A program made the translations under genes and the position numbers. Positions 1 to 34,703 of a stretch of 64,000 nucleotides of DNA are shown one piece after another. Positions within the stretch are counted from its first letter, which is position 1. The number at the start of each line of letters is the position of its first letter. The notes beneath the pieces are model-generated. The model did no database searches. It worked only from the letters and a program-made list of their open reading frames with translations, and was not told the DNA's origin. Source of the stretch: Candidatus Daviesbacteria bacterium (GTDB lineage Bacteria; Patescibacteriota; Microgenomatia; Daviesbacterales; UBA10151); the NCBI GenBank assembly GCA_016432425.1, contig CP066688.1, forward strand, positions 148,368-212,367, written 5' to 3'.

Positions 1-756
1 GGGGTAAAAAGTTATGGGGTATTTTGCTAAATCCTTTTTAATCTCTGCCAGCTCGTCCATTTCACTCTCATTAATATAACCGGCAATATGCAGACTCCAC
101 CCAGAAAGCAATTTTTGATCATATAATTTTTTAAAAGTATCAATTAAAACTTGATGCTTTTTGGGTTTTTTATATCCCAATAGTCGCCCGACCGTTAAAA
201 TATATTTTTTCTTTTCTGATGATTTTGTTGGTGAGGAAGATAGTTTAGCGATCTTTAAAACATCTACTGGCGGATAAACTATGGTCGTCTTAATCGGCCA
301 AGTTTTTTTAATAAACCCTTCAGTAAAAATTGAATTACAGATTCCTAAGTTCCAAGAAGAAAGTTTTTTCTTTCCCCAAATACCTTTATTTAAATTAGGT
401 AAGGGGGCTTGAAAATGAATTATACTATTTCTCGCTGTGGAATAAAAAACACTACCATCTGTCAGATAAAATAAAAAATCGTATTGTTTTAAAAAAAGTG
501 ACCTTTTAATCAAACTGCTACCTTTGCCCAAAGGAGCTTTAACTAAATTGACTTTAGATAAATTTAAGTTAAAACGTTTATTGCTTATTTTAATTAGTTC
601 GCAACTGCTCCAAGCGACAAGTTTATTATCTAATAAAATATCTACTTGATTATTCCGGGAAAGAAATTCTGCAATGGTCAGTATATACCTCTCTCCCCCA
701 CCGAAGGTATCAAGGTATGGTGTATATAATCCAATTCGCAAGTTGGTTTTGCTCAT
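1..756 (-). CDS. Glycosyltransferase family 4 (GT-B, group 1), partial; the gene runs off the left edge
   Basis: Hand translation of the minus strand from the ATG at 756 gives MSKTNLRIGLYTPYLDTFGGGERYILTIAEFL... and a later TVGRLLGYKKP motif. There is no in-frame stop down to position 1. The GGGERY and TVGRL motifs are typical of GT4 enzymes. The ORF track omits it because no stop lies in the window. Confidence 0.6.
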   Translation of the reverse strand, partial: MSKTNLRIGLYTPYLDTFGGGERYILTIAEFLSRNNQVDILLDNKLVAWSSCELIKISNKRFNLNLSKVNLVKAPLGKGSSLIKRSLFLKQYDFLFYLTDGSVFYSTARNSIIHFQAPLPNLNKGIWGKKKLSSWNLGICNSIFTEGFIKKTWPIKTTIVYPPVDVLKIAKLSSSPTKSSEKKKYILTVGRLLGYKKPKKHQVLIDTFKKLYDQKLLSGWSLHIAGYINESEMDELAEIKKDLAKYPITFYP

Positions 757-764
757 TTTCATTT

Positions 765-1577
765 TTAAAAATTAAACTCATTTTGGATAAGTTTTTTATC
801 AATATCATCATAAGTTTCTTGAAGAGATTTTTTTTGTTGGAGTTGCCATAACTTAACATAACTGATATACAAACTAAAAGCTTGCAGGAGAGAGTCAATT
901 ACCCCCACTGTGCCATTAAAAAATCCCTGGCGTAAAATTCCTTGATTAAAAATTTCACTAAATAAAATCTTTAAAAAGCGCCAGCTGCTCATCGGGGGAT
1001 GACCGCTGTCGTAACGCAACCTGGCATCAATGTTGGCCCAATCTAAACTTTTTAGAACCATGGAATCAATATCCCGATGGGTTAAATGTAAAAAGGAATT
1101 TTCTAATTTAGCTAGTTTTCCACTAAATTTTGGGCTTTCATGAACCTTTCCCTGCCAACATTGGAGAGATACCCTTTTGAATAAACGGATTACATAATCT
1201 GGCCAAAAAGCAGGGTATTTTTTCTCTGCTCCTAAAATAATATTCCGCCGGGAAATTGCCCAAGCTCCACTACCTTCTTTTGTTAAAATATTTTGGATTT
1301 CTTCTTTTAAGGGTTTAAGCACCCGCTCATCAGCATCTACATACAAGATCCAATCCCCTTTTGCCTCCTGCAGGCCTAAATTTCTCAATCTGGAAAAATC
1401 TTTTTCTGTAATTTGAGGACTAGAGACAATTTTTGCCCCCTCTGCCTTGGCGATTTTAATGGTGTCATCGGTTGACCCATCATCCACCACTACAATTTCA
1501 TCTGCCCATTTAACAGAAGACAGACAAGCTTTAATCATCTTTTCTTCGTCTTTAGTAATAATAATTACTGATAACAT
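765..1577 (-). CDS. Glycosyltransferase family 2 (GT-A)
   Basis: MLSVIIITKDEE...WADEIVVVDDGSTDDT...YVDADE. DxD and GT2 signature motifs are present. The start ATG abuts the stop of the next gene. Confidence 0.8.
   Translation of the reverse strand: MLSVIIITKDEEKMIKACLSSVKWADEIVVVDDGSTDDTIKIAKAEGAKIVSSPQITEKDFSRLRNLGLQEAKGDWILYVDADERVLKPLKEEIQNILTKEGSGAWAISRRNIILGAEKKYPAFWPDYVIRLFKRVSLQCWQGKVHESPKFSGKLAKLENSFLHLTHRDIDSMVLKSLDWANIDARLRYDSGHPPMSSWRFLKILFSEIFNQGILRQGFFNGTVGVIDSLLQAFSLYISYVKLWQLQQKKSLQETYDDIDKKLIQNEFNF
1447..1510. repeat. 64-nt tract identical to 6265..6328 (inside GT2 paralogs)
   Basis: TTGGCGATTTTAATGGTGTCATCGGTTGACCCATCATCCACCACTACAATTTCATCTGCCCATT occurs identically in both genes and encodes WADEIVVVDDGSTDDTIKIAK. 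Confidence 0.85.
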
Positions 1578-2432
1578 TTAAATGTTCCCTTCGTTAAAAT
1601 TGCCCATTAAAAAATCTAATAATGCTTTCCTTCTGGCAGGAATCCCCATATTTTTTAAAGCTTCTCGGAAAAGCGCAAACCTAGTTCTAAAAGGGGCAAA
1701 TTTAGAGGCAAAGAGCATTCTGTTGCGGGTGATGTAATAATCCTGGAGCGGAGAACCCAGTCCTGTAGAACGAGCATTTTTATGATGAATTAAAGAATTG
1801 GGCGTATACCAAACTTTAAACCCAGCTTGTTTTGCCCTCATGCAAAAATCAGCATCCTCATAGTATAAAAAATATCTCTCATCAAATAAACCTATTTTAT
1901 TAAACACTTTAGCAGAAATTAACATGGCGGCACCTGTCACATAATCAGTTTCCTCCGCTTGGTTATATTGACCGCTATCCAGCTCATCCACACCCCGATG
2001 TTTTCCTAATACATTTCTCATATCTAATATTCCCCCAGCATACCAAATTTTCTTACCGGTCCCAAAATATATTTTGGGACCGATTATCCCACTTTGATAT
2101 TTTTTGGTCTCATTTAATAAGTTCTCAACGGCATTTTTCTCTACCACTGTGTCAGGATTTAAAATTAAGATATACTCCGCTCCCCTCTCCAGCACATACT
2201 TAATTCCCACGTTATTACCCCCGGTAAAACCTAAATTTTTCTGAGTAACTATCAAAGGAATTTTAGGAAACTTTTTCTTGAGGGCCTCCACTGAACCATC
2301 GGCCGAGTTATTATCAATGACTAAAACTTTAAAATCTTTATTAAAACCGACACTTTTGGCAAGTGACTTAATACACTCTAAAACCTCCTTTTTTACTTTG
2401 TAGTTTAAAACTACGACGTAAGTTTTAATCAT
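1578..2432 (-). CDS. Glycosyltransferase family 2 (rhamnosyltransferase-like)
   Basis: VVLNYK...VIDNNSADGS...ILNPD...YYEDADF are GT2 motifs. It overlaps the downstream methyltransferase by 4 nt. Confidence 0.8.
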   Translation of the reverse strand: MIKTYVVVLNYKVKKEVLECIKSLAKSVGFNKDFKVLVIDNNSADGSVEALKKKFPKIPLIVTQKNLGFTGGNNVGIKYVLERGAEYILILNPDTVVEKNAVENLLNETKKYQSGIIGPKIYFGTGKKIWYAGGILDMRNVLGKHRGVDELDSGQYNQAEETDYVTGAAMLISAKVFNKIGLFDERYFLYYEDADFCMRAKQAGFKVWYTPNSLIHHKNARSTGLGSPLQDYYITRNRMLFASKFAPFRTRFALFREALKNMGIPARRKALLDFLMGNFNEGNI

Positions 2433-3064
2433 ATTTTCTGGGCAACAATTAGTTTCAGCATGCCTAAATGAAAAGTCTTAACTCCAATAATTTTAAAACC
2501 AATATTTTTGATTAATTGCTCCAGCAACCCACCGCTAAAATGTTGCACATGGGCATGGCTCCAATGGCGATAATACAGGGTCCACAAAAACCAAATTATT
2601 TGAAAAAGTTTATTTTCGCTGGGAACCAAAATATAAATTCTACTGCCTGCTTTAGCCACTCTTTTAATCTCCTTTAAAACTGCTCTCGGATCATCAACAT
2701 GCTCCATCATCTCCAAGCAAAAAATGCCTGAAAAAAAACTATTTTTAAATGGCAACTTCACTGCATCAGCTACTTCAAAATGACCAAAGGGGAGCCTTTT
2801 TTTAGCCAAAGCTATGGCTGAGCGGGAAACATCTATCCCATAAATATCCTGGCCGCCAATCTTTTTTAAGATTTGTTGAGTAAAAGTACCACTGTGGCAA
2901 CCCACATCTAATATAGGACCTTCAACTTCTTTAATGACTTTAAGTACTTCTACAAATCTTCGAAAATGCCAATATTTTTGGAATAAATTTTTCTTAATAC
3001 CCTGATCATAATGATCAGCCGGCACATCTTCATGTATCTCCAGTAATGATTTTTTCTTGGACAT
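2429..3064 (-). CDS. Class I SAM-dependent methyltransferase
   Basis: LDVGCHSGTFT matches motif I (GxGxG-like) of Rossmann-fold methyltransferases. The IYGIDVS and CLEMMEHV motifs follow. Confidence 0.75.
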   Translation of the reverse strand: MSKKKSLLEIHEDVPADHYDQGIKKNLFQKYWHFRRFVEVLKVIKEVEGPILDVGCHSGTFTQQILKKIGGQDIYGIDVSRSAIALAKKRLPFGHFEVADAVKLPFKNSFFSGIFCLEMMEHVDDPRAVLKEIKRVAKAGSRIYILVPSENKLFQIIWFLWTLYYRHWSHAHVQHFSGGLLEQLIKNIGFKIIGVKTFHLGMLKLIVAQKI

Positions 3065-3093
3065 CTATTATTTTTTTCCTCTCCTCTTAAAGA

Positions 3094-5505
3094 TTATGCT
3101 CGAAATGGCCTTTTCGATCTCCGAACTAAATAATAATAACCGGTCGTGACGAAAAGGCCAAATACTGCTAATAAGGATATCATTTTCCCTTTCTTAAAGC
3201 TATCTGGCTCGTACCTAATAATTACCCAATGATCTCCGGCCATTTTTATGGGCACAGCCATAAAAGTGTAATCTGCCTCAACTGGGGCAGTTAATTCTCC
3301 ATCTACATAAGCTTTCCATCCCGGGTAGAAAACCTGGGAAATAAAAAGTAACCCAGGTTGGTTAGTTTCCAGAGCAATTTCTTTTTGGCTAGCTTCATCT
3401 TTAATTATCCGAACTGTTCCCTGCCCTGGTTGAGGATGGAAATCTAAGTCCGTGTTAATAATTAGTTTTTTAGATAAATCGGACTCAAGCAAAAAACTTA
3501 AAATCTTTTGCTCATCCCTTTCTACTTGCCAATCATAAAACATCATTGCCCGGGGCAGTACTTTGGTATTTTCTAGCACCGCTACTGTTTTATCGGTAAA
3601 AACCGGTTTTAAAAATGGGGTCTTAAATCTGTCCGGTAAACTTCCTTGTGGGTCAGGTTTACCCTGGGAGTCTTTTTTCAAGGCTAAGATGTATTTAGCA
3701 TTAACTAGTGATAATAAGGGGGAATTGGGGTTGGAAACTGAGCCGTATCTGCCCATTGGGGTAGCTGCTGTATCCCCTGAATTTAACACCCCTAAAAATT
3801 TAGCATATTTAATTGGATAAACAGCATCATAACCTTCCACTGTTTCAATCCGATAATTCATTAAAAAATTAATCGGGATAACATCTTCTGCCATCACCCG
3901 GTAATGCTTTTGTTGGCGTAAAAATTCAATCACCGAGGTGGTGGGGAAAACTATCTCCGGAGAGGAAAAGGGGGTAAATTTCCAGCCAAAGCGGAATAGT
4001 TCCCCTATTGCCAAAACAATCAATATCAATACTAAAATTAATTTACTCCGTCCTTTGTTACCAAATTTATAATGACACCATAGGATTATCCCAGTTACTG
4101 TGAGTAAAATTGTTGGCAAAATTAAATTGCGCAAGGCCACTTTCAAATTAGCTAAAAATTTTAATGATTCTTCATTGATCAAAAAATGGTATTGAAAAAA
4201 TAAAAAAACTGACCCAGTCACCAAAAGGTAAGCCAGTAAAATAATGCCAGGCAAATAAAGGGCTCGTCTGATTTTCTCGAGTGTTAATTTATCTTTAAGT
4301 AAGCCGTCAATCCCAAAAGCGCCCAAAATGGCAACACCCAAATTAAATAAAATGAGCGCCCGATGAGCAGAAGCTGCCTGCAAACCCAATAAACCTGCCT
4401 CCTTAAAGGCTACTGAAATAGGGTTGGGCAGAGCAATAAACAAAGAAGCTAAACTTAAAACAAAAGCAAATTGGGCATACTTGTTTTTAAAATGAAACAG
4501 ATAACCCAACGATGCCAAAATCCCTACCACCACTCCTACAAAACCAGTGGTTAAAGTATAATCTGCCGGCCCCCAGTAATTATAAGTTGCATGATTGCCA
4601 AAATAGTCAGGGGCAAAAAAAGTTATAAGCAACTGCCATGGCAAAAAGGCCCAGCGGTTTAACACTATTTCTATACTTCTTTGTGAATGAGCTAATAATT
4701 CACCACCCGGCAAAAGTTGTACTCCTGCCAATCCCAAACCAATTAAAATTAAAAAACCGAAACTGAAAATTTTTTTAAAATTAAATAATAATTTAAAATC
4801 TAGTATGATAATTAACAGTAGTATAGACAAAAATTCATAAAGGATAATTTGCGGATAACCGGAAAAAATCTGCAGGCAAAGCGTTATTGGCAGCAAAAAT
4901 CCCGCCCAAACTTTTTCCTTAAAAAGAAATTTGATACTTAAAAATAAAATTGCCGGAAAAAAGGCAGCCACCAAGGAATGTCCATTCCACTGTAACCAAA
5001 CAGTGATAAACCCGGCAAAAGAGAAAAAAATTCCTCCGGCCATGGCAGCCAGTTTACTACGACCTATTTCTCTGAGTAGAAAATATAAAAATACTGCTGC
5101 CAACAGAGGCTGAAAAATTATTTGCCAGTTCCAAGCTGATAATTTTGGTAAGATAAAGTATAAAAAATTAGTGGGAGAAAAGGGAGCTGATTGAAAATTA
5201 GCCAGCAACGGTGTTCCTGCTAAAATTAAATTATTCCACAAAGGGATGTCGCCATTTTTTAATTGATCGATAGCAAACATCTGCATGGGGAAAATAAAAG
5301 ATACAACATCGGTGGTAATGGGATTTTTAACTGGAACTCCTGCTTCAAAACCCGCCCATTTATAATCTAACCAAGGATAGTAAACCCCCACTACAAAATC
5401 CGCTGGCAAAGGAATTTTACCCTGCAGCCAAACCGGATAAAAAAAGATCGCTACCACAACAACAATCGTCAAAACAGGCCATAGGATATTAAAGGCTCTT
5501 CTCAT
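3094..5505 (-). CDS. YfhO-like polytopic membrane protein (putative GT-C family glycosyltransferase)
   Basis: 803 aa. The N-terminal ~450 aa are rich in TM helices. A large soluble domain follows, then a single terminal TM helix (MISLLAVFGLFVTTGYYYLV). This architecture is typical of YfhO. Confidence 0.5.
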   Translation of the reverse strand: MRRAFNILWPVLTIVVVVAIFFYPVWLQGKIPLPADFVVGVYYPWLDYKWAGFEAGVPVKNPITTDVVSFIFPMQMFAIDQLKNGDIPLWNNLILAGTPLLANFQSAPFSPTNFLYFILPKLSAWNWQIIFQPLLAAVFLYFLLREIGRSKLAAMAGGIFFSFAGFITVWLQWNGHSLVAAFFPAILFLSIKFLFKEKVWAGFLLPITLCLQIFSGYPQIILYEFLSILLLIIILDFKLLFNFKKIFSFGFLILIGLGLAGVQLLPGGELLAHSQRSIEIVLNRWAFLPWQLLITFFAPDYFGNHATYNYWGPADYTLTTGFVGVVVGILASLGYLFHFKNKYAQFAFVLSLASLFIALPNPISVAFKEAGLLGLQAASAHRALILFNLGVAILGAFGIDGLLKDKLTLEKIRRALYLPGIILLAYLLVTGSVFLFFQYHFLINEESLKFLANLKVALRNLILPTILLTVTGIILWCHYKFGNKGRSKLILVLILIVLAIGELFRFGWKFTPFSSPEIVFPTTSVIEFLRQQKHYRVMAEDVIPINFLMNYRIETVEGYDAVYPIKYAKFLGVLNSGDTAATPMGRYGSVSNPNSPLLSLVNAKYILALKKDSQGKPDPQGSLPDRFKTPFLKPVFTDKTVAVLENTKVLPRAMMFYDWQVERDEQKILSFLLESDLSKKLIINTDLDFHPQPGQGTVRIIKDEASQKEIALETNQPGLLFISQVFYPGWKAYVDGELTAPVEADYTFMAVPIKMAGDHWVIIRYEPDSFKKGKMISLLAVFGLFVTTGYYYLVRRSKRPFRA

Positions 5506-6401
5506 TTCACTCTATTTGCCACTTTTTGTACAAATCTTTTAAGGGGATTTTTAGATAAATTGCCATATTTAAACCAATAATCTAAATCCTCACCGGATTT
5601 TTTCTTTAGTTGTCTAAGCTCAGTTAAGTCAATTTCTTTTGAAAAAAATTTCTCTTTTTCCCAAACTTTTAGATACATAATCAGAAAAGAAAAAGCTTGG
5701 AGCAAACTTAAAGATAGACCATGAAGGCCATCTTCAAAACCGCGGTTAGCAAAAAACCGGCTTAAAAATTCTGACAGCGGCTTAGTTAAAAGATCTGACC
5801 AACTAAATTTATAGCCATTTTCTATTAGCTCGTTTGCCTGAATTGTAGTATAACGATTTAATCGCTCCACGAATTCGTTAATTGTGCGATAGTGATGGTG
5901 AGTAATTGCCAACTCTTCCTTTAGCTCTAATTTCATTCCCTCCCCTGCCACATCTGGTGGACGATGAATTTTATTACTCCATTTAACCGCGCCTTTTCTA
6001 AAAAATCTAATGTTATAATCCGGCCACCACATAGAAGCTTTCATCCATTTGTTAAAGATGATATTTTTCCGAGGTATTTCTACATAGTTGATTTGCTCCA
6101 AATTTTTGCTAATATCGCGCAGTCTTTTTGCCAGTTCTGAAGAAATTTCTTCGTCGGTATCTAAAATTAAAATCCAATCACCACTGGCTTTAGAAATTGC
6201 CAGATTGCGGGCCGGCTCGACAAATCCAACACTTTTGTGTTTATATATTTTATTGGTATATTTTTTGGCGATTTTAATGGTGTCATCGGTTGACCCATCA
6301 TCCACCACTACAATTTCATCTGCCCATTGGACTGAAGTTAGGGCTGTTTCCAAATATAGGGCAGCATTTAAAGCATTAATCACCACAGAAATATTGGCCA
6401 T
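5502..6401 (-). CDS. Glycosyltransferase family 2
   Basis: ISVVINALN...WADEIVVVDDGSTDDTIKIAK...ILDTDEE. It shares a 64-nt identical tract with the GT2 gene at 765..1577. Confidence 0.8.
   Translation of the reverse strand: MANISVVINALNAALYLETALTSVQWADEIVVVDDGSTDDTIKIAKKYTNKIYKHKSVGFVEPARNLAISKASGDWILILDTDEEISSELAKRLRDISKNLEQINYVEIPRKNIIFNKWMKASMWWPDYNIRFFRKGAVKWSNKIHRPPDVAGEGMKLELKEELAITHHHYRTINEFVERLNRYTTIQANELIENGYKFSWSDLLTKPLSEFLSRFFANRGFEDGLHGLSLSLLQAFSFLIMYLKVWEKEKFFSKEIDLTELRQLKKKSGEDLDYWFKYGNLSKNPLKRFVQKVANRVK
6265..6328. repeat. 64-nt tract identical to 1447..1510
   Basis: See the partner feature at 1447..1510. Confidence 0.85.
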
Positions 6402-6422
6402 ATATGTATCTTAACGATTTTC

Positions 6423-7772
6423 TTACTCCTCTGCCACTTTTGTTATCGAAAACATTTTTATTATCTGGAAGAATAAAACTACATTAATTACAGAAAGTAG
6501 TCTGGCGATTAACCCCTCTTGCCAAATTAAAACTTGACGCAAAGGTTCGAGCCACTGGGGAAACCACCAACCGTGATAGAGATTAACCCAAAAAATTAAA
6601 CTCAAAATTAAGAAATATTTAATAAATCTGGGTCTGTAAATAGTAAGGAAAAATAAAGAGGCTATGGCAGCATATTCATATCTTTCCAACATGTTAGTTA
6701 AAAAAAGCCAACCGCTGAAAGAAACTAAAAACATTGCTTTAAAAATATTTTCTAAAGTTACTTTATTTAATAGTTTAAAAGCAAACAAATTAATTAAGGC
6801 GAAAATCCCATACCCCCAAAGCTTGGCTGGTAAAAATAGAAAAATGTAATCCTGGCCAAAAGCTTTATTACCTATCAAAATATGCCAAAAGTTAAAAGAG
6901 TTGGTAGAAAGTCTAAATTCTGCCCGATGCACTACTTTGGGAAAAAGATAAGTCTTAGTAAAAGTGACTACATCTAAATTAGTAAAGGGGACAATAATTA
7001 GATATGTCATTACCAGAGAAGCTATTATTCCTAGTCCTAATTGCCAAAGTTGAGTTTTTTGCTTAATCAGCAACCATAAAAAGAAAGGCAAAAAGACAAC
7101 TGCAGTGGGTTTAAAATGCAGTGCTAGACTTAGGAGTATGATAGAGAAAAAGATCTTCCTTTGGTAAAGCAGTAAAAAAGAAACCAGTACCAATAAAAAA
7201 TCTAAATTATCAGATTGACCCCAAAAGGAAGACAGATAAAAACTAAAAGGAGAAAGTAAAAAAAGCAGGGGCCAAATTAAAGGATATTTTATATGTTGTG
7301 ATTTAGCTAAATAGTAAGAAACAACTGCCAGCGCCAAATCGGCCAAAATTAAAGGCAGTTTAATTGTCATTAAAAAACCTGTTTTCAGGATCGTCACATC
7401 GTATTTTTGGATATCAAACCATTTTATAAAATCAAACCACCACACCATATGGCCAGGTGCCGTATGGGGAACAACATTAAAAGTTAAAAAGCGGAAAAAC
7501 TCCAAAATCTGCCAGTAAAGCCACCTGTCAAAACCAAAGAATAAACTCCCCAATGGCGGATAATTAGGCCAAGAATAAATCCAAATTTCAAAATTATAAA
7601 AACCCAAGGGGCCATGGTCAAAAATCCACTGGCCCCAAGCAGCCTGAGATAAAATATCGACATGAAAAACTAGATTACTCAAAAAAACTTTAACAAAAAA
7701 GGCCAACAGAATTATCAAAAATATCGGGGAAGTTTTTGCCTGTAAAAAAGCTATCTTAATTTTAGCAACCAT
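6423..7772 (-). CDS. Polytopic membrane protein, putative GT-C-like glycosyltransferase
   Basis: 449 aa with more than 10 predicted TM helices. It is embedded in the glycosylation operon. No motif is diagnostic. Confidence 0.4.
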   Translation of the reverse strand: MVAKIKIAFLQAKTSPIFLIILLAFFVKVFLSNLVFHVDILSQAAWGQWIFDHGPLGFYNFEIWIYSWPNYPPLGSLFFGFDRWLYWQILEFFRFLTFNVVPHTAPGHMVWWFDFIKWFDIQKYDVTILKTGFLMTIKLPLILADLALAVVSYYLAKSQHIKYPLIWPLLFLLSPFSFYLSSFWGQSDNLDFLLVLVSFLLLYQRKIFFSIILLSLALHFKPTAVVFLPFFLWLLIKQKTQLWQLGLGIIASLVMTYLIIVPFTNLDVVTFTKTYLFPKVVHRAEFRLSTNSFNFWHILIGNKAFGQDYIFLFLPAKLWGYGIFALINLFAFKLLNKVTLENIFKAMFLVSFSGWLFLTNMLERYEYAAIASLFFLTIYRPRFIKYFLILSLIFWVNLYHGWWFPQWLEPLRQVLIWQEGLIARLLSVINVVLFFQIIKMFSITKVAEE

Positions 7773-15804: not shown

Positions 15805-15835
15805 AAGTTTTATTAATTATTATACAATCTTTTAC

Positions 15836-17281: not shown

Positions 17282-17951
17282 CTTTTAAAAATTGCACCCT
17301 CTCGGTATCCACATAATTCCACTCCACCGGCACTTCAGCAATTTTGAAACCATATTTTTTAGCCAAATATAAAATCTCCACATCAAAACCGGCATTAACT
17401 GCTCCTCCCCCGGTATGAACCACCCCCCATTCATCTTTTATTTGGGGGATAATTTTGGCAATGGCAGCCTGGTTAAAAGCTTTAAAACCGCATTGGGTAT
17501 CCCGGAAAGGCAGACCTAAAAATATCGTTCTGATCAGTGTCCAACCATTGGCCATTATTTTTCTGATTAGAGGCGCACCTTTTCTGCCGGCTCGGGAGCC
17601 AATGACAATATCAAAACCGCTCTCAAATTTGGGGAAGAATTTCTCAATCTGATTTAGCGGTGTAGCTTGGTCCATATCGGTAAAAAGAGCAAGCTCTCCT
17701 TTGGCAGAAAGCAGTCCAGTCATGACTGTAAAAGCCTTGCCTCCATGGCGATTTTCTATTAATTTAAAGTTTTTCATATTTTTCATCTGCTGTTTAGCCA
17801 CCGAGGCCGTGTTATCGGAAGAACCGTCATCTACCACCAAAACTTCATAAGGGTAATCCACAGTTTTTAAGTAATTATTAACTTCATTTAATACCCCATT
17901 TTTAATATTTTTCTCTTCATTATAGGCTGGTATAATTACTGATAATTTCAT
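17217..17951 (-). CDS. Polyprenol-phosphate sugar synthase (GT2, DPM1/GtrB-like)
   Basis: MKLSVIIPAYNEEKNI...VLVVDDGSSDNT...TDMDQ. A short soluble GT2 of 244 aa. Confidence 0.75.
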   Translation of the reverse strand: MKLSVIIPAYNEEKNIKNGVLNEVNNYLKTVDYPYEVLVVDDGSSDNTASVAKQQMKNMKNFKLIENRHGGKAFTVMTGLLSAKGELALFTDMDQATPLNQIEKFFPKFESGFDIVIGSRAGRKGAPLIRKIMANGWTLIRTIFLGLPFRDTQCGFKAFNQAAIAKIIPQIKDEWGVVHTGGGAVNAGFDVEILYLAKKYGFKIAEVPVEWNYVDTERVQFLKDALAAIYDILRIRWNDLHGKY

Positions 17952-20167
17952 GACCTAACCTTCCTCGACTCTGGCGGTTTCCCGCTAGGATTATGTATTA
18001 GTTTAAATACTTTTACACCTCTAAACTGTGACTCTTCTTCTACCTTAGCCCAACCAAAGTGGGAAATTTCTTGTTTGGGATGGCCAATTGGCTCACAGAC
18101 AGGATCTTCACAAACCACAAATAACTGCTCCGTTATTTCAAATGGTATTTGAGCTGGTTTGTATCCATACAAACCTAAATAAAATTGATATGCAGCATCA
18201 TAGTTGTTTTTAGCGATCAGGGCAAAATTAAATGGTTTGTCCGCTGATTTCTCAATTACATACTTGGCTATATCCTGTGTCCTCTGTAGTTGGTTATTGG
18301 GCGCAAGAGTTAAGGGGCTTTTTTGTAGATTAAAAACTGCCAGAACTACAATCAAAACCGCGGCTGATATTTTCATTAATTGTTTTAATGGGCCAGTGTA
18401 AAAAAATGCTAAACTATAAAAACTCCCCAGTAGGATAAATGGTACCGGACTGACAAACCCTAAATAGTGGGCATAAACATTTTGTTTATATAAAGCCAAA
18501 CCTAAAAGTGATCCTGCGAGCCAAACACCTAACATTAAATAGGGCCAAGATAAAATACCATCCTTAATTTTTCTCCCGAAAAACAATGCTAAAGGTATTA
18601 AAACTGCAACTGAGGTAATTAAAGTCAAGGTTTTCTCTTGGACTGTCAAGTAAGTGCCAATTAAAGATTCTTGGTAGAGAGGGACAATCCTAAACAGAGA
18701 GTTGACAGGGTTTAAGTTAACAGTAGCCTCCCTGTTACCAAAAAAATTTTGCAAGGCCTGAAAGTTCATAAAATTATGTTTTAAGTCAAAAAGTAGGAGC
18801 GGGGACATTAAAATTAAAAATACCAAAATAGCCAATATTGTTCCCGACCTCACATTTCCTAATTCCCTTTTTTGAGACTTACTATAAATTATTTGATGTA
18901 GCCATAAAACTGCTGCTATAGGAATTAAAATTAAAGCCAGATAATGCATTTGGACAACAAAAGCCAGCGCTCCCCCGCTTAAAATGAGCCAGCGGAAATT
19001 ACCTGTTTGATGGATTTTATATAAACCAAATATGCAAAGTAAGGCAAAAAATGGCGCCGGATTAGGATTCCAAGATGAGCGGGAATAGATGATATTGACC
19101 GGTGAAATACTATAAAGAAAGGCTGCTACCAAACCGGCCTGTTTGGAAAACCACTGGCTCGTTAGATGGTAAATCAACCAGACTGTTAAAATTCCAATGA
19201 CAGCTACCTGGTAAGCTGCCGCGACGGGATTTAGCCAAAAAATAGCCATGGGAATTGCCATCATATAGTAATAAAGGGGGCCTAAATAAATATTGCCAAT
19301 GGAGGTAGGTGGGCCAATAAATGGTAGGTCACGTTCCACTAATAATTTTTTAATTACCAAAGCATCTCTCCCTTCATCGCCCAAAAAGGTCATATATTCC
19401 GGTAGGCGGTAAAATCGCAAAATCGCCGTTAACCCTAAAAGTAACATCAAAATTAGAAATTCTTTTTTATCCAAAAGTACCCACCACAGTTTTAGTAAAT
19501 CTAAATAACTTTTAGCGACCACTTTTAAATTGGCTCCGGTTTGGGTACCGAATTTTCTCGGGTAATGGTGTACTCCCACCTCTAAAATTTTAAAACCCAT
19601 TCTTCGGGCTTTAACCAAAAACTCTATCTGGGTGACTTTTTCCTCCCCCACTAACGGTTGAACTTTTTCAAAAACTTGTTTTTTAATTAATTTAAATCCA
19701 CAAGAATAATCTCTGACATTTAAACCTAAAAGTAGTTTTGCCCCTACATTCCACACATAAGCTCCCACTATTCTGCTGAAAGAGTCCATTCTTTTAAGCC
19801 TATATCCCAAAACTAAATCTGCCTGATCAGCTTTTTCCAAAAGTTTTTTAATCTCGCCAAAGTCAAATTGGCCATCTGAATCGGCAAAAGCTACCCAGGA
19901 AAATTTAGCTGCCTTGAATCCGGTTTTTAGCGCTGCCCCATAGCCTAAATTGTGGGGGTGGGCCACCAATTTAATTTTTCTGTTTGTTTGCGAAAAATTC
20001 TCAACGATTTCTCTGGTTTTATCTTTTGATCCATCATCCACCACCACAATTTCATAATCTTCTAAGGTCAATCCTGTCAGAACTTTTACTGAGTCCGCAA
20101 TAGTTTTTTGGATATTAGCTTCTTCGTTAAAAGCCGGGAAGAAAACAGATAATTTGTCTACACTCAT
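17948..20167 (-). CDS. Fusion protein: N-terminal GT2 polyprenol-phosphate sugar synthase plus C-terminal polytopic GT-C-like domain
   Basis: The N-terminal ~230 aa carry SVFFPAFNEEANI...VVVDDGSKDKT...FADSDGQ. The C-terminal ~500 aa are multi-TM. Confidence 0.7.
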   Translation of the reverse strand: MSVDKLSVFFPAFNEEANIQKTIADSVKVLTGLTLEDYEIVVVDDGSKDKTREIVENFSQTNRKIKLVAHPHNLGYGAALKTGFKAAKFSWVAFADSDGQFDFGEIKKLLEKADQADLVLGYRLKRMDSFSRIVGAYVWNVGAKLLLGLNVRDYSCGFKLIKKQVFEKVQPLVGEEKVTQIEFLVKARRMGFKILEVGVHHYPRKFGTQTGANLKVVAKSYLDLLKLWWVLLDKKEFLILMLLLGLTAILRFYRLPEYMTFLGDEGRDALVIKKLLVERDLPFIGPPTSIGNIYLGPLYYYMMAIPMAIFWLNPVAAAYQVAVIGILTVWLIYHLTSQWFSKQAGLVAAFLYSISPVNIIYSRSSWNPNPAPFFALLCIFGLYKIHQTGNFRWLILSGGALAFVVQMHYLALILIPIAAVLWLHQIIYSKSQKRELGNVRSGTILAILVFLILMSPLLLFDLKHNFMNFQALQNFFGNREATVNLNPVNSLFRIVPLYQESLIGTYLTVQEKTLTLITSVAVLIPLALFFGRKIKDGILSWPYLMLGVWLAGSLLGLALYKQNVYAHYLGFVSPVPFILLGSFYSLAFFYTGPLKQLMKISAAVLIVVLAVFNLQKSPLTLAPNNQLQRTQDIAKYVIEKSADKPFNFALIAKNNYDAAYQFYLGLYGYKPAQIPFEITEQLFVVCEDPVCEPIGHPKQEISHFGWAKVEEESQFRGVKVFKLIHNPSGKPPESRKVRS

Positions 20168-20193
20168 CTTTAAAAGTATACTATACTTAGTTT

Positions 20194-21348
20194 ATGTCTA
20201 AAACCGGGAAAGATTTAGCAATAATTATCTTCACTATTTTATTTTCTACTTTTTTAGTTTGGTTACCACATTTATTAGCCCTCCCTAATTTTTGGAATTT
20301 AGATTTTTCAGCAGGATTTAATACTATTTACCGCAATTTTGATGGATTGGAATATATTATAATTGCTAAAACTTTTTACGATCCGGCATTGATTGCCGGC
20401 ATTCCCCAGGCTTTACCGGCCAATTATTTTGCCTCTCATTTTCCAGGCTTCCCTTTATTAATTTTCATATTTGCTCCCCTATTGGGATATTTAAAATCAA
20501 TGCTTTTGGTAACAGTTTTTTTTACAATTGCCTCTAGTTTAGCTTTTTATTTTTTGGTTAAAGATTTTAAACTAACTGTCCATCCCCTATTTTTAACTTT
20601 AGTCTTTCTATTCCTACCAGCCCGCTGGTTAATTGTCCGCTCTGTGGGTTCTCCTGAACCTATATTTATTTTTTTTGTAATTTTATCTATTTATTTTTTC
20701 TTACGAGCTACTAGTTACCAGCTACTAGTTACCGAATTCATCTGGATCTCAGCCATCTTTGCGGCCCTGGCTCAGTTAGTGAGACCTCCGGGGATGCTTT
20801 TAATGGCAGGTTTAGGATTATATGTTTTATGGCAAGCTTATAAACAAAAATCTATTCAATATTTTCTTTCCTTTTATCCGTTTTTAACAATTCCATTAAC
20901 CTTACTCGGCATTTTTTATTTTTATGGCATTCAATACGGGGACTTCTTGGCTTATTTCCATTCCGGAGACAACATCCATCTCACTTTCCCTCCGTTTCAG
21001 ATTTTTAACACTAAACAATATTGGGTAGAATCTATTTGGCTGGAGGATATAGTGTATATTTTTTTGTTAGGTTTTTTAGGGGGGCTGCTACTCTTTAAAG
21101 AAAAAGTTTACCCTGTGGCATTTTTTGTTTTAACTTATCTATTTGCTTCTATTTTTGTGGCCCATCGCGATATCAGTAGATATACCCTACCGATCGCTCC
21201 TTTTGTCATTATTGCATATGAGAAAGTAATTAATACTAAATATTTTAAGATTACTTTGGCTATTTTGGCTTTGGGAATTTATCTCTACTGCCAAAACTAC
21301 CTTATTAATAATATCGCTCCAGTGCCTGATTTATCTTTTTACGATTAA
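20194..21348 (+). CDS. Polytopic membrane protein of unknown function
   Basis: 384 aa, more than 10 TM helices. It is the only plus-strand gene in the locus. It is divergent from 17948..20167 with only 26 nt between the two start codons. Confidence 0.5.
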   Translation: MSKTGKDLAIIIFTILFSTFLVWLPHLLALPNFWNLDFSAGFNTIYRNFDGLEYIIIAKTFYDPALIAGIPQALPANYFASHFPGFPLLIFIFAPLLGYLKSMLLVTVFFTIASSLAFYFLVKDFKLTVHPLFLTLVFLFLPARWLIVRSVGSPEPIFIFFVILSIYFFLRATSYQLLVTEFIWISAIFAALAQLVRPPGMLLMAGLGLYVLWQAYKQKSIQYFLSFYPFLTIPLTLLGIFYFYGIQYGDFLAYFHSGDNIHLTFPPFQIFNTKQYWVESIWLEDIVYIFLLGFLGGLLLFKEKVYPVAFFVLTYLFASIFVAHRDISRYTLPIAPFVIIAYEKVINTKYFKITLAILALGIYLYCQNYLINNIAPVPDLSFYD

Positions 21349-22532
21349 TCTTCTTTTTTCCAGGTGACAAAATGGTTCATTAAAAAGTTCCAAGTCATTA
21401 CCGGGGGGATGGTGGCAAAGAAGTAAAAATTATTGTAAGCAATATGGATTTTGCTTATATAGATAAAGCCGTCTCCATATAAAGCATGCAGTAAATACAC
21501 TACCCCATAGCTAATTATTACTCCCCCTGAACTGACTAAATTAAATAGTAACCATCGTAATATTAGAGAATTTTTAGTTTTTCTCTTTTTGAAAGTCCAA
21601 ACATTGTTAAAGAAAAAATTATTTTGAATGGCCAAAATAGTAGAAATTAATTTGGCATTAGGGGGAGTAAAACCAAATTTGGCAATAAATAATTTATAAA
21701 AGATAAAATCTACCAACGTACCGGTAAAACCGACTGTCCCAAATTTGATGAAAGTTTTGCTACGCCTGGCCAAGAATAAAATTGGTAGATTCATTCCCCA
21801 TTTTGATAACCTCACTTCTATCGCATAACCAAAGATATCAATAATGTAGTTCATAATTTCGTTTTTCGACCGGTCTGCCCGACGGTTGCGAAAAATAATC
21901 GGTACTTCCGTCATTTTGGCCCCAGCCCGGGCAGCTTCTACTACTGCAGCCGGCTGGATTAAAAAGGTAGTGCCATGCCAGGGCACCGCCTGCCAATTCA
22001 TCCGCAAAAAAAGATTTTTGGTGTAGGCCTTATAGGAAGGAGTAAAATCGGTAATTTTCCAAATTCCGGTTAAAAGCCGCAAAACTAAATTTGCAAAAAT
22101 AGTAAACATCTGGCGAGAAAAGGCAATGTTATTCTTGCCGCCGGCAGTTAACCTGGAGCCTTGGACGTATTCATATCCCTCACTAATTTTTTGTAAAAAC
22201 TTAGGAATATCATTGGGGTCATGTTGTAAATCAGCATCTATTTGCATCAATACTTCAGCTTGTATTTTTTTTAAAGCATACTCATAACCTTTAATTATGG
22301 CTAGACCCAATCCCCGCTCAACCACATCTAGAAAATGTACCCGGGGATTTTTAGATACCAATTTTTTAGCTAACTCTCCCGTACCATCAGGCGAATGGCT
22401 GTCCGCTACTAACACATGAATATCGAAACCAGGCACCTTACCATTTTGTTCCAAAATAAGCCGGACAACCTTTTCTATACTACCCCGCTCATTGAAAGTC
22501 GGAGCAACTACAACTACTTTTTTTTCTTTCAT
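21345..22532 (-). CDS. GT2 polyprenol-phosphate sugar synthase fused to a GtrA-like C-terminal membrane domain
   Basis: N-terminal VVVAPTFNERGSI...VLVADSHSPDGT...IDADLQ is DPM1-like. The C-terminal ~120 aa have 4 TM helices (GtrA-like). Confidence 0.7.
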   Translation of the reverse strand: MKEKKVVVVAPTFNERGSIEKVVRLILEQNGKVPGFDIHVLVADSHSPDGTGELAKKLVSKNPRVHFLDVVERGLGLAIIKGYEYALKKIQAEVLMQIDADLQHDPNDIPKFLQKISEGYEYVQGSRLTAGGKNNIAFSRQMFTIFANLVLRLLTGIWKITDFTPSYKAYTKNLFLRMNWQAVPWHGTTFLIQPAAVVEAARAGAKMTEVPIIFRNRRADRSKNEIMNYIIDIFGYAIEVRLSKWGMNLPILFLARRSKTFIKFGTVGFTGTLVDFIFYKLFIAKFGFTPPNAKLISTILAIQNNFFFNNVWTFKKRKTKNSLILRWLLFNLVSSGGVIISYGVVYLLHALYGDGFIYISKIHIAYNNFYFFATIPPVMTWNFLMNHFVTWKKED

Positions 22533-22576
22533 GGCTTGATTGTATGGGAACTTAACTAACTTGGCAAGAAGTCAAG

Positions 22577-23158
22577 TTATTTTTTAAAAACTTGAGCAAA
22601 GGTAGGATTTTGCTGGTCTTTATCTGAGACTTGAGGACTATTTATTTGCCAATCGATATTTAAATCAGGATCGTTCCATAAAATCCCTGTCTCTTTTCCT
22701 GGTTCCCAAAGCTGGTCAGTTAAATAATGAAAATCTGAATCCTGGCTTAATGATAAAAAACCATGTCCACAACCAGCCGGGACAAATACCCTGACTCTAT
22801 TTTTTTCTCCCATGTTGACAGATAAATATTTTCCAAAAGTTGGCGAGTTAACTCTAAGGTCAACAATGATATCCTGCACTTCTCCCCTCATACAATAAAT
22901 TAGTTTATTCCAGGGGGCTTGATGGATACCTCGCAAGTACCCTTTTTTAGTACGGGAATGGTTATCCTGAGCTAAATTAAATTTAAAACCTAAATGATCT
23001 TCTAATTCCGACAAACGGAAAGTCTCCCGGAAAAACCCTCGCTCATCTTCAAAAGTAGGTGATTCTATAATCAAAACTCCTGGGATCTCAGTTTCGGAAA
23101 TTTTAGTTTTGGTATCAGCCATAATTTTAAATATAACTTTTTTGGACCACCCGATCAA
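22577..23158 (-). CDS. rfbC: dTDP-4-dehydrorhamnose 3,5-epimerase
   Basis: IPGVLIIE...FEDERGFFRETF...KGYLRGIHQ are conserved cupin RmlC motifs. Confidence 0.85.
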   Translation of the reverse strand: MIGWSKKVIFKIMADTKTKISETEIPGVLIIESPTFEDERGFFRETFRLSELEDHLGFKFNLAQDNHSRTKKGYLRGIHQAPWNKLIYCMRGEVQDIIVDLRVNSPTFGKYLSVNMGEKNRVRVFVPAGCGHGFLSLSQDSDFHYLTDQLWEPGKETGILWNDPDLNIDWQINSPQVSDKDQQNPTFAQVFKK

Positions 23159-24128
23159 CTATTGGCCGATCTTTCCTTAAAGGTCCCCACCACCACTCAT
23201 TTTCCTTAAACCATTGTACAGTTTTTTCCAACCACTTATCGAAATTATGCTTTTGTCTCCAGCCTAACTTTCTTATTTTTGATCCATCGTTGGCATAACG
23301 AAAATCATGTCCCAAACGATGGTCTACGTATTCAATATATGTTTCATTTAGCCTCAAAATTTCTAGAATTTTTTTGGTTACTTCCAAATTTGTTTTTTCT
23401 TCCCCATTAATTAAATAAGTTTCCCCTACTTTACCTTTTTGCAAGACCAAATCAATAGCCCGGGCATGGTCCTCTACATATAGCCATTCCCTAATGTTTT
23501 CTCCCCTACCCATCAAAGGTACTTTTTGCCCCAGTAATAGATTGGTAATAAAACGGGGTATTAATTTTTCCGGATCATGGTAGGGCCCAAAATTATTGGC
23601 GCAATTAGTAATGGTGACGGGCAGTCCATAAGTTTCAAAAAAGCTGCGGACTAAATGGTCTGATCCGGCTTTAGAAGCAGAATAAGGCGTCCTTGGCTGA
23701 TAAGGAGAATTTTCAGTAAAAGACGATTCATTTAACTGCAAATCCCCGTAAACTTCATCGGTGGAGATATGATGAAATCTTTTGACTTGATGTTTCAAAG
23801 CTGCATCCAGTAAAGTGGCTGTCCCCAAAACATTGGTTTTGACAAAAACCAAAGGATCAATCACGGAGCGGTCCACATGAGACTCAGCGGCAAAATGAAC
23901 TATTATATCAACTGTCGACATGGCTTGATCAACAGCTGCCGGGTCTGTAATATCTCCTTTAATAAAAAGGTAGCGAGGGTTTTGTTCAACATCACGCAAA
24001 CTTTCCAGATGACCGGCGTAAGTTAATTTATCAAAATTGACAACCGTATCTTGAGGATGGTTTTTTAAGTAATAACGAATAAAATTTGAACCAATAAAAC
24101 CCGCTCCCCCGGTAACCAAAATTTTCAT
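23127..24128 (-). CDS. rfbB: dTDP-glucose 4,6-dehydratase
   Basis: MKILVTGGAGFIGSNF is the Rossmann motif, and a YSASK catalytic motif is present. This is an extended SDR. Confidence 0.9.
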   Translation of the reverse strand: MKILVTGGAGFIGSNFIRYYLKNHPQDTVVNFDKLTYAGHLESLRDVEQNPRYLFIKGDITDPAAVDQAMSTVDIIVHFAAESHVDRSVIDPLVFVKTNVLGTATLLDAALKHQVKRFHHISTDEVYGDLQLNESSFTENSPYQPRTPYSASKAGSDHLVRSFFETYGLPVTITNCANNFGPYHDPEKLIPRFITNLLLGQKVPLMGRGENIREWLYVEDHARAIDLVLQKGKVGETYLINGEEKTNLEVTKKILEILRLNETYIEYVDHRLGHDFRYANDGSKIRKLGWRQKHNFDKWLEKTVQWFKENEWWWGPLRKDRPIVDRVVQKSYI

Positions 24129-24131
24129 AGA

Positions 24132-24998
24132 TTATTTTTGATTGATAAGATTTAATAAATATTCCCCATAACCGCTTTTCAAAAGGGGCTCTGCCAAAGC
24201 TTCTAACTGTGCTTTATTTATAAAACCTTCTCTAAAAGCCACTTCTTCCAGACAGCCGATTTTTAACCCCTGTCTTTCTTCGATCACTTGTACAAATTGG
24301 GAAGCTTGAGTCATACTGTTAAAAGTTCCTGTATCCAGCCAAGCAGTCCCCCGATCTAACAAACAAACTTTTAATTTACCTTTTTTAAGATAAGCATCTA
24401 AAACCGAGGTTATCTCCAGCTCTCCTCTGGAACTCGGTTCAACATTTCTGGCAATTTCTATAACATCATTATCACAAAAATAAAGTCCAGCATTAGCATA
24501 ATTTGATTTAGGAATAAGCGGTTTTTCTTCAATTGAAATAATATTCATTTTGTCATCAAACTCATAAACCCCGTATCTTTGTGGATCAGTTACTTGTGCT
24601 GCAAACCCCAAAGCTCCATCTATATCTGCATACTGCTTTAATTGCTTACCCATCTGAGTACCGTAAAAAATATTATCTCCTAAAATCATAGCTACCTTAT
24701 CACTACCTATAAAATCTGCCCCTAATATAAAAGCATCTGCTAAACCCCGCGGTGTTTTTTGTACTTTATAGGAAAATTTACAACCTAATTTTGAACCATC
24801 CCCTAAAAGTTCTTCAAATCTAGGAAGATCTTTTTCTGTAGAAATAATTAAAATGTCGTTGATACCAGCCAACATAAGGATTGATAGCGGGTAATAAATC
24901 ATCGGTTTATCATAAACCGGTAGCAGTTGTTTGCAAACATAAAGTGTGAGCGGGTATAGTCGGGTACCCAATCCTCCAGCTAGAACAATACCTTTCAT
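24132..24998 (-). CDS. rfbA: Glucose-1-phosphate thymidylyltransferase
   Basis: MKGIVLAGGLGTRLYPLT is the canonical RmlA N-terminus. Confidence 0.9.
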   Translation of the reverse strand: MKGIVLAGGLGTRLYPLTLYVCKQLLPVYDKPMIYYPLSILMLAGINDILIISTEKDLPRFEELLGDGSKLGCKFSYKVQKTPRGLADAFILGADFIGSDKVAMILGDNIFYGTQMGKQLKQYADIDGALGFAAQVTDPQRYGVYEFDDKMNIISIEEKPLIPKSNYANAGLYFCDNDVIEIARNVEPSSRGELEITSVLDAYLKKGKLKVCLLDRGTAWLDTGTFNSMTQASQFVQVIEERQGLKIGCLEEVAFREGFINKAQLEALAEPLLKSGYGEYLLNLINQK

Positions 24999-34682: not shown

Positions 34683-34703
34683 AATGAAATTAGAAGGTTC
34701 CCT

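Follow-up and report, generated by a model that had tools for sequence, protein, structure and literature searches.

An envelope-glycan locus of Candidatus Daviesbacteria that probably combines two known lipid-carrier routes

Three-component glycosylation systems have been described in several groups of bacteria, i.e. GtrA/GtrB/GtrV in enterobacteria, CsbB/GtcA/YfhO together with GtlA/GtlB in Bacillus, Listeria and Staphylococcus, CsdAB/CflA in Lactococcus and GacI/GacK/GacL in Streptococcus pyogenes (PMC8035078, PMC11127046). A locus with comparable parts is found in Candidatus Daviesbacteria, at positions 1–24998 of a 64-kb stretch of DNA (the whole of the DNA that was analysed, termed here the window). 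The interval probably represents most of a conserved envelope-glycan locus in which two known lipid-carrier routes are combined. Its genes are numbered g0 to g18, left to right.

The locus resembles the three-component systems in that adjacent genes encode a putative membrane-associated GT2 synthase and a GtrA-family or Wzx-type flippase, and in that there are multi-spanning GT-C proteins (PMT_2, YfhO or of no Pfam family) which display an acidic residue in the first outside loop. It differs from them in that three synthases and eight GT-C modules are present in one locus (ten modules in 36 kb), and in that one synthase is fused to a GT-C (g13) and another to GtrA (g15). The organism also differs, as it is a bacterium of the Candidate Phyla Radiation (CPR) whose genome is no larger than about 1 Mb.

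The rhamnose loci of Gram-positive cocci, i.e. rgp, gac, cwps and epa, are similar as well (PMC9574508, PMC10821137). They too display rml genes with rhamnosyltransferase-like GT2/GT4 genes, a Wzx-type flippase and GT-C side-chain transferases, and their side-chain genes vary strongly between strains. Unlike these, the present locus is without an RgpCD-type ABC exporter, a TagO/GacO-type primer, an LCP ligase and rmlD (also termed rfbD). The architecture of g7, a DUF3863-type domain joined to a GT-C module, has no counterpart in the cited descriptions of the rgp, gac, cwps and epa loci (PMC9574508, PMC10821137).

With the archaeal Agl/STT3/AglB/PglB systems the locus shares DPM1-like GT2 proteins, soluble glycosyltransferases, a methyltransferase, a Wzx-like flippase and a large GT-C with an exported domain. 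Unlike Agl/STT3, g7 lacks the STT3 Pfam signature and WWDYG, and its globular domain is N-terminal and hydrolase/deacetylase-like.

Mycobacterial arabinogalactan and lipoarabinomannan assembly involves Emb, Aft, PimE/GT87 and Ppm1, with a battery of GT-C enzymes that use polyprenyl-monophosphate sugar donors outside the membrane. A GT-C battery, large GT-Cs with extra exported domains and a synthase fused to a membrane enzyme (cf. Ppm1) are found in the present locus also, and Foldseek matches the g7 and g6 models to AftA, EmbB and PimE. However, there is no sequence-level orthology, and g7 bears its extra domain, which is of the DUF3863 type, at the N-terminus in place of a C-terminal carbohydrate-binding module.

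The genomes of CPR bacteria are very small, and the cells are, so far as is known, attached to other cells. For these reasons surface chemistry likely decides host recognition and phage sensitivity. To our knowledge, almost nothing is known of CPR surface chemistry. Here one CPR lineage devotes about 25–35 kb to lipid-carrier glycosylation, which amounts to a few per cent of its contig of roughly 0.8 Mb, and the number of outward-facing GT-C proteins is exceptional. It is the GT-C density and the coupling of Wzx to g7 that deserve attention; the missing rfbD does not. The links offered here are the fusion of a synthase with a GT-C, the coupling or fusion of Wzx with g7, and a nucleotide-sugar block that varies between lineages in the manner of serotype loci. 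All components belong to known families and there is no new protein fold. An abundance of glycosyltransferases and rml genes in CPR genomes has been published before (PMC5220378). Literature searches (DUF3863; Patescibacteria with GT-C; Daviesbacteria with glycosyl terms) gave nothing on this locus, the g7 architecture or DUF3863.

Organization and conservation of the locus

The genes of the interval, the gap between rmlC and g15 and two GT-C paralogs found further on in the window are as follows, with the evidence for each.

1–762, minus strand: g0, GT4-type glycosyltransferase, C-terminus cut by the window edge; weak Glycos_transf_1 and ALG11_N matches
765–1577, minus strand: g1, soluble GT2; PF00535 6e-20; paralog of g5, 36% identity (blastp)
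1578–2432, minus strand: g2, soluble GT2, rhamnosyltransferase-like; PF00535 8e-19
2429–3064, minus strand: g3, class I S-adenosylmethionine-dependent methyltransferase; Methyltransf_23, _11 and _25, about 1e-19
3094–5505, minus strand: g4, 803 amino acid (aa) YfhO-like GT-C membrane protein with about 14 hydrophobic segments; assigned via orthologs
5502–6401, minus strand: g5, soluble GT2; PF00535 2e-21
6423–7772, minus strand: g6, 449 aa GT-C, ALG6/PimE/GT87-like; AlphaFold2 and Foldseek
7772–11188, minus strand: g7, 1138 aa, DUF3863-type domain and GT-C; AlphaFold2, Foldseek and hhalign
11172–12623, minus strand: g8, Wzx-type MOP flippase; Polysacc_synt_3 1e-54; 17-nucleotide (nt) overlap with the start of g7
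12620–14311, minus strand: g9, 563 aa GT-C of the PTPS_related family; PTPS_related 1.3e-5, just below cut-off
14308–15804, minus strand: g10, PMT_2/ArnT-like GT-C, D35 E36; PMT_2 1.4e-15, Agl23-like TIGR03663 9e-11
15836–17281, minus strand: g11, PMT_2/ArnT-like GT-C, D53 E54; PMT_2 2.2e-16, ArnT NF009784 3e-9
17217–17951, minus strand: g12, 244 aa DPM1/ArnC/PgfS-like GT2, putative polyprenyl-phosphate sugar synthase; PF00535 1e-24
17948–20167, minus strand: g13, 739 aa fusion of a DPM1/ArnC-like GT2 (1 to about 225) and a PMT_2 GT-C (about 235–739); PF00535 4e-34, PMT_2 9e-12
20194–21348, plus strand: g14, 384 aa PMT_2-like GT-C; orthologs P0211 and P0316 pass the PMT_2 cut-off
21345–22532, minus strand: g15, GT2 (AglJ/PgfS/DPM-like) with a GtrA-family transmembrane domain; PF00535 9e-23, PF04138 4.8e-19
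22533–22576: 44-nt gap between rmlC and g15; in relatives the slot of rmlD, often with a gmd-like gene in addition
22577–23122, minus strand: rmlC, dTDP-4-dehydrorhamnose 3,5-epimerase; TIGR01221 176.8 bits, cut-off 155.75
23127–24128, minus strand: rmlB, dTDP-glucose 4,6-dehydratase; TIGR01181 458.5 bits, cut-off 365.1
24132–24998, minus strand: rmlA, glucose-1-phosphate thymidylyltransferase; TIGR01207 435.4 bits, cut-off 360.65
33138–34682 and 34704–36290, minus strand: two further GT-C paralogs of 514 and 528 aa, next to secA; weak PMT_2 matches

In the first of the two proposed routes, RmlA, RmlB and RmlC would supply a dTDP-6-deoxyhexose. The transferases g0, g1, g2 and g5 and the methyltransferase g3 would build an oligosaccharide on polyprenyl phosphate at the cytoplasmic face, and Wzx (g8) would flip it. 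The GT-C module of g7 may then transfer or polymerise the flipped glycan extracytoplasmically, and the exported DUF3863 domain of the same protein may bind or trim it. The parts of this route are assigned by homology, and from these we infer the chemistry. In the second route g12, the N-terminal half of g13 and g15 would make polyprenyl-monophosphate sugars. The GtrA domain of g15, and possibly Wzx, would flip these, and g4, g6, g9, g10, g11, the C-terminal half of g13 and g14 would add single sugars outside the membrane. The second route corresponds to the three-component systems known from Gram-positive bacteria, and the component logic as a whole agrees with published three-component systems and Wzx pathways (PMC8035078, PMC11127046, PMC9574508).

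The interval is densely coding and displays 19 tightly packed genes, 18 on the minus strand and one (g14) on the plus strand. An initial annotation, made from the sequence, had described nineteen consecutive minus-strand genes forming a single-strand super-operon. The number of genes is correct, however g14 (20194–21348) is on the opposite strand, both here and in all 85 related loci mapped. Because of the position of g14 on the plus strand, the region holds at least three transcription units and not one operon, i.e. a unit from rmlA to g15, a plus-strand unit made up of g14 only, and a unit that starts with g13 and runs past g0. The many 4-nt overlaps that had been reported are found at five same-strand junctions (g2/g3, g4/g5, g8/g9, g9/g10 and g12/g13). 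Remaining junctions include overlaps of 1 nt or 17 nt and gaps of 0–2 nt. Genes g14 and g13 are divergent with a 26-nt spacing, and g14 and g15 are convergent with a 4-nt overlap. Coordinate 1 is the edge of the window and not the end of the locus, and g0 is truncated there. A promoter and terminator scan was uninformative (33 promoter-like sites, 32.9 expected).

Database entries 100% identical to g6, g7 and g14 are the hypothetical proteins HYW45_00715, HYW45_00720 and HYW45_00755. Identical proteins are named Candidatus Daviesbacteria bacterium and belong to a metagenome-assembled genome, on a contig of 820,589 bp, which agrees with the CPR origin suspected at the outset.

Relatives of the locus are L003, which is the closest (78% identical in g7), L004/L079 and 80 metagenome loci around homologs of g14. 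Strand mapping of g14 covered 85 related loci, and in 85 of 85 the g14 homolog is on the strand opposite g13 and g15. The shared order is g9 (one to four tandem copies)-g10-(g11)-g12-g13-(g14, opposite strand)-g15-nucleotide-sugar genes-CAP protein. Loci that reach far enough display g8-g7-g5-g4-g3-g2-g1-g0 and then further glycosyltransferases; past g0 the cluster of relatives contains a GT87-like gene, two GT2 genes and a further PMT_2 or AsnB gene.

At L003:1837–3889 an EcoO109I-like endonuclease and a DNA methylase are inserted between the g12 and g11 orthologs.

Synthases, flippases and GT-C transferases

Three DPM1/GtrB-like synthases had been proposed. PF00535 is matched by each of these, i.e. 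by g12, by the N-terminal half of g13 and by g15. In NCBIfam they come nearest to ArnC, PgfS, dolichyl-phosphate hexose transferase, AglJ and PpgS. These matches are far below cut-offs; they support the assignment of all three as putative synthases of the GT2 polyprenyl-phosphate sugar type and do not specify the sugar. For g12 the matches are PgfS (7.5e-22), ArnC (3.7e-18) and dolichyl-phosphate hexose transferase (2.9e-17), all below cut-offs.

In 44 related loci g13 is one fused gene, and in 21 it is represented by two overlapping genes. The synthase is thereby tied to this GT-C.

The g15 protein displays the GtrA domain at 69.1 bits (PF04138, cut-off 26.1 bits), and AglJ (TIGR04182, 2.5e-17) is its best NCBIfam match. 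The g8 protein has the NCBIfam matches MOP flippase (3e-49), TuaB and O-glycosylation flippase. Both flipping functions that had been read from the sequence, i.e. a GtrA domain fused to one synthase and a Wzx-like flippase, are therefore present (PF04138 in g15, Polysacc_synt_3 in g8).

The interval contains eight GT-C modules, and there are ten within 36 kb when the two at 33138–36290 are counted. The initial estimate of at least six is thus exceeded. Direct searches gave no Pfam or NCBIfam match for g4, g6 and g7, and sequence searches of the PDB were also empty for these. Assignments therefore needed orthologs, profile-profile comparison (hhalign) and structure prediction (Foldseek) in addition to Pfam, and on this combined basis they hold.

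The g4 sequence is 57% identical to its ortholog in L004. Orthologs in L004 and L003 score 67.6 and 45.1 bits with YfhO, where the cut-off is 28.5 bits, and g4 is thus the one YfhO-like protein that had been predicted, although it has no direct Pfam match itself.

The AlphaFold2 model of g6 has a pLDDT of 92.1. Foldseek matches it to ALG6 (8.6e-5, TM 0.63), PIG-U, GPI mannosyltransferase I, ALG3, PimE, ALG9 and ArnT. Among g6 homologs, 3 of 45 have a GT87 match and residue D39 is invariant. L003 and L004 have no such gene between their g7 and g5 orthologs; in both, a homolog follows the GT4 gene instead. GT-C genes thus move or duplicate within the locus.

The g9 family aligns by hhalign with PMT_2 (the C-terminal half of g13) at 98% and with the YfhO-like g4 at 95%. 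Two ArnT/PMT-like proteins with a DE motif had been counted, and these are g10 and g11; the count was too low since the C-terminal half of g13 also displays PMT_2 and the motif (D264 E265). As called, g11 overlaps g12 by 65 nt, and the gene probably begins not at 17281 but 40–50 nt further downstream. It is often absent in relatives.

The g14 gene is the most conserved of the locus. There are 2380 homologs, the best 120 of which are 60–80% identical, and D50 is invariant. With this number of homologs, of up to 80% identity, g14 was rejected as a spurious open reading frame. A direct search with g14 gave a single faint hit, to the NCBIfam family AZOBR_p60025 (8e-7), that is far below cut-off.

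The first outside loop of the GT-C proteins displays an acidic residue, i.e. the invariant D39 (g6), D50 (g14) and D620 (g7), and in g9, g10, g11 and g13 a DE or DD is found in this loop. The two paralogs at 33138–36290 match the GT-C half of g13 by blastp (9e-21 and 3e-14, 26–30% identity).

Protein g7 and the transfer of the flipped glycan

The AlphaFold2 model of g7 was made with 42 homologs and has a pLDDT of 87.4. It displays a signal peptide, an exported α/β domain at about 25–470, three linker transmembrane helices, and a GT-C module with a small C-terminal domain at about 580–1138. The signal peptide appears cleavable (…VSA/AS). Positive charges flank the predicted inside loops and would place both the DUF3863 domain and the H619-D620 loop outside. 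The g7 family has 1906 matches at E <= 1e-3 among 50%-identity representatives, and each half of the protein also occurs alone.

The N-terminal domain matches 3LM3 by Foldseek (1e-10) and, more weakly, CE4 deacetylases. The 3LM3 entry is a DUF3863 structure annotated as 'putative glycoside hydrolase/deacetylase', and the domain itself has faint matches to DUF3863 (PF12979). A canonical CE4 deacetylase was rejected because the His-His-Asp metal triad, with its TFDD and H-S/T-x-x-H motifs, is missing. No His is invariant in residues 1–470; H116 and H254 are near-invariant and far apart.

For the membrane part, Foldseek gives AglB (3e-9) and over ten chains of STT3 (1e-8 to 1e-6), and in addition DPY19, ArnT, AftA and ALG12. 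The g7 family aligns with the g13-type PMT_2 family by hhalign at 88%, with the invariant H619-D620 placed on the conserved R-D that follows the DE motif; g7 is without the DE pair itself. With the g14 family there is no hhalign signal (4%); g7 is linked to the g13-type PMT_2 family only. Invariant residues of g7 include H619, D620, K789, D857 and R858. No WWD-type motif is found among the invariant columns past residue 990, and the only such sequence is WW(I)D in the N-terminal DUF3863 domain. Thus, where a check for resemblance of the 1138 aa protein to polymerases or deacetylases had been proposed, AlphaFold2 and Foldseek indicate a hydrolase/deacetylase-like ectodomain fused to a GT-C transferase.

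Wzx is always directly before g7. In addition, natural fusions with Wzx at the N-terminus are found in two divergent lineages, P0034 (1615 aa) and P0327 (1639 aa). P0034 is 55% identical to g7 and 41% to g8; for P0327 the values are 39% and 40%. The constant adjacency, the 17-nt overlap and the two fusions tie Wzx to g7.

It is conceivable, although distinctly unlikely, that the g7 family represents an undescribed GT-C class that is physically and functionally coupled to Wzx and replaces Wzy, WaaL or an oligosaccharyltransferase. It would accept the flipped lipid-linked glycan and transfer or polymerise it outside the cell, with DUF3863 processing the glycan and with the pathway primed, as in Archaea, on polyprenyl monophosphate by a DPM1-like GT2. 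If true, this would be an Agl-like, phosphoglycosyltransferase-independent route of envelope glycosylation typical of Microgenomates-group CPR bacteria.

The soluble enzymes proposed to act before flipping are the GT2 proteins g1, g2 and g5, the GT4 protein g0 and the methyltransferase g3. The earlier count of four soluble GT2/GT4 enzymes and a methyltransferase is borne out by Pfam. Full-length orthologs of g0 are 365–367 aa in length and display PF00534 (L003, L004). The best NCBIfam match of g2 is the rhamnosyltransferase subfamily TIGR01556 (3e-27, below cut-off).

Nearly all open reading frames of at least 130 aa in the 64-kb window were scanned for a primer, polymerase and ligase. Phosphoglycosyltransferases of the PF02397 (WbaP) or PF00953 (WecA) type were found neither among these nor in the Pfam lists of relatives, and Wzy_C and LCP (LytR_cpsA_psr) gave no match in the scanned frames. 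Wzy proteins are hard to detect by hidden Markov model (HMM), and a missing Wzy match is no proof of absence. The g7 protein may fill the Wzy/ligase role. The "complete lipid-carrier logic" and "full toolkit" of the initial annotation are nevertheless not upheld, since phosphoglycosyltransferase, Wzy_C and LCP are all missing from the scanned frames.

Several points weigh against the two-route reading. There is no primer and no recognisable Wzy or ligase in the window or in the clusters of relatives, thus the locus does not encode a complete route 1. With rmlD missing, the rhamnose arm may not function. Wzx could flip a monophosphate-linked sugar instead, as proposed for GacK (PMC8035078). Every GT2 match is below its equivalog cut-off and does not assign a sugar specificity. 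For g9, assignment as a GT-C relies on Pfam scores that are borderline, together with hhalign. The TM-scores of g7 with AglB/STT3 are low, 0.27–0.30 when normalised on the query (Foldseek probability 1.0), and g7 is without a Pfam STT3 match at a threshold of 0.01 and without the WWDYG motif. Lastly, the use by g7 of a donor flipped by Wzx is deduced from gene order, the two fusions and similarity of predicted fold.

A different use of the same parts is possible, although unlikely, i.e. an Agl-like general protein glycosylation. A DPM1-like GT2 would prime the monophosphate, soluble glycosyltransferases and the methyltransferase would extend the glycan, Wzx would flip it and g7, acting like an oligosaccharyltransferase, would transfer it in one piece to secreted proteins such as those of the S-layer or pilins, with the PMT-like GT-C proteins adding further sugars to protein. 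The membrane part of g7 is structurally nearest to the oligosaccharyltransferases AglB and STT3, AglJ is the best NCBIfam match of g15, and g10, g11 and g13 match the Agl23 family TIGR03663; however, these Agl-type NCBIfam matches are far below cut-offs, and g7 has neither an STT3 Pfam match nor a conserved WWDYG or DK motif in the C-terminal domain. Haloferax Agl clusters also contain a methyltransferase, Wzx and rhamnose genes, and PMT_2 families include protein O-mannosyltransferases, both of which count in favour of protein glycosylation. Monophosphate priming fits as well with the lack of a phosphoglycosyltransferase in the scanned frames. Against this, the usual targets of PMT_2 and YfhO enzymes in monoderm bacteria are teichoic acids and wall polysaccharides (PMC8035078), and no acceptor protein was identified. 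The combination of two lipid-carrier routes for an envelope glycan is preferred.

The nucleotide-sugar block, the rmlD slot and neighbouring genes

RmlA, RmlB and RmlC are full length and all three exceed the NCBIfam equivalog cut-offs, in agreement with their initial annotation as rfbA, rfbB and rfbC. The catalytic His, Lys, Tyr and Asp of RmlC are conserved in an alignment to 2IXI. RmlD, reported as missing from the locus, is in fact absent from the whole 64 kb, as searched by phmmer with RmlB, by tblastn with the RmlD of a relative and with an HMM made for the purpose from 29 RmlD sequences (--max).

The 44-nt sequence between rmlC and g15 displays a palindrome, the stem of which is 9 bp, and after it a T run on the plus strand, and a −35/−10-like promoter sequence for g15 overlaps this palindrome. 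The junction without rmlD recurs in L080, a Logan assembly made independently from the same sample, which rules out an assembly artefact. In L079 an RmlD-family gene is located between rmlC and g15; its best match is TIGR01214 (3.6e-37) and its PDB matches are all RmlD. Among the loci surveyed, about 29 have rmlD at this position and it is missing in about ten, including the present one.

The commonest arrangement in relatives is rmlA-B-C-D adjoining the GT2-GtrA gene, so that the absence of rmlD, which had been presented as a feature of the system, does not characterise it. The block ranges from a gmd-like gene plus rmlABCD to rmlABC, rmlAB or none; only rmlAB is found in L120, L161 and L162, and L121 has no rmlC. 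On a rough g14 tree the loci without rmlD fall into at least four groups that are interleaved with rmlD-bearing loci. The slot is filled in most relatives and is taken as ancestral; rmlD was lost from it repeatedly, in at least four lineages, and this is not a new pathway. Loss of rmlD is thus recurrent, lineage-specific and part of a variable nucleotide-sugar block, and it is not a design feature of the locus.

A gmd-like gene of 340–350 aa is located between g15 and the rml genes in L083, L086, L115, L120 and others. It scores 310 bits with TIGR01472 (GDP-mannose 4,6-dehydratase), below the 415-bit cut-off, and is absent from the window. Its presence in the relatives points to a second source of 6-deoxyhexose there. 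As a substitute for rmlD the gene was rejected, since in most loci the two occur together and the window has no gmd-like copy. In L159 (12714–14918) the gmd-like gene beside g15 is split by an intein with a LAGLIDADG homing endonuclease.

The locus probably uses rhamnose, as indicated by the match of g2 to the rhamnosyltransferase subfamily TIGR01556. Since rmlABC and this GT2 are intact, the reductase step is most likely supplied by a gene elsewhere in the 0.82-Mb contig. In two relatives (L003 and L004) no rmlD is found in the 5–6 kb beyond the GT4 gene. An RmlC search of genome contigs gave only loci of Bacteroidota, Cyanobacteria and the like, at 46% identity or less, and nothing on Daviesbacteria.

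The variability of the block bears on a further reading, in which the interval is an island of independent modules for different polymers and its rhamnose arm a decaying remnant, with rmlD gone and no L-rhamnose made. Modular content in relatives would be in accord with this (g9 in one to four copies, g6 and g11 variable, the restriction-modification insertion of L003, and the nucleotide-sugar block itself), as would the strand switching that breaks the operon and the presence of three synthases with eight GT-C modules, cf. the several separate GT-A/GT-C pairs of B. subtilis and L. lactis (PMC8035078). However, RmlA, RmlB and RmlC are full length and above equivalog cut-offs with the catalytic residues of RmlC intact, the rhamnosyltransferase-like g2 is kept, the core gene order is strongly conserved and many junctions look translationally coupled. 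An island of this kind is quite improbable.

Very improbable is a diversion of the RmlC product (dTDP-4-keto-6-deoxy-L-mannose) or RmlB product by another enzyme to a non-rhamnose sugar for which rmlD is unneeded: the disappearance of rmlD from the locus, with rmlABC retained, in no fewer than four separate lineages, and the rmlAB-only (L120, L161, L162) or rmlC-less (L121) relatives, which point to varied use of the intermediate across the group, speak for it, but the 64 kb contain no aminotransferase, alternative ketoreductase, dehydratase or other sugar-modifying short-chain dehydrogenase/reductase, the sole extra tailoring enzyme is a generic methyltransferase, and the gmd-like gene of other rmlD-less loci is absent here.

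A membrane-anchored CAP/SCP-domain protein (25147–26019, minus strand) adjoins the rml block. It is found beside this block in nearly every related locus that reaches past it, and in relatives without rml genes it is located directly after g15.

Further along the window, a lamin-tail-domain protein of 420 aa (31453–32715, plus strand) is located beside a PcsB-like M23 peptidase and FtsEX. This region looks like a cell-division and cell-surface neighbourhood. An IS200/Y1 transposase-like open reading frame (53899–54543, plus strand; PF01797, 1.4e-8) is found between the genes for a corrinoid adenosyltransferase and ribonucleotide reductase.

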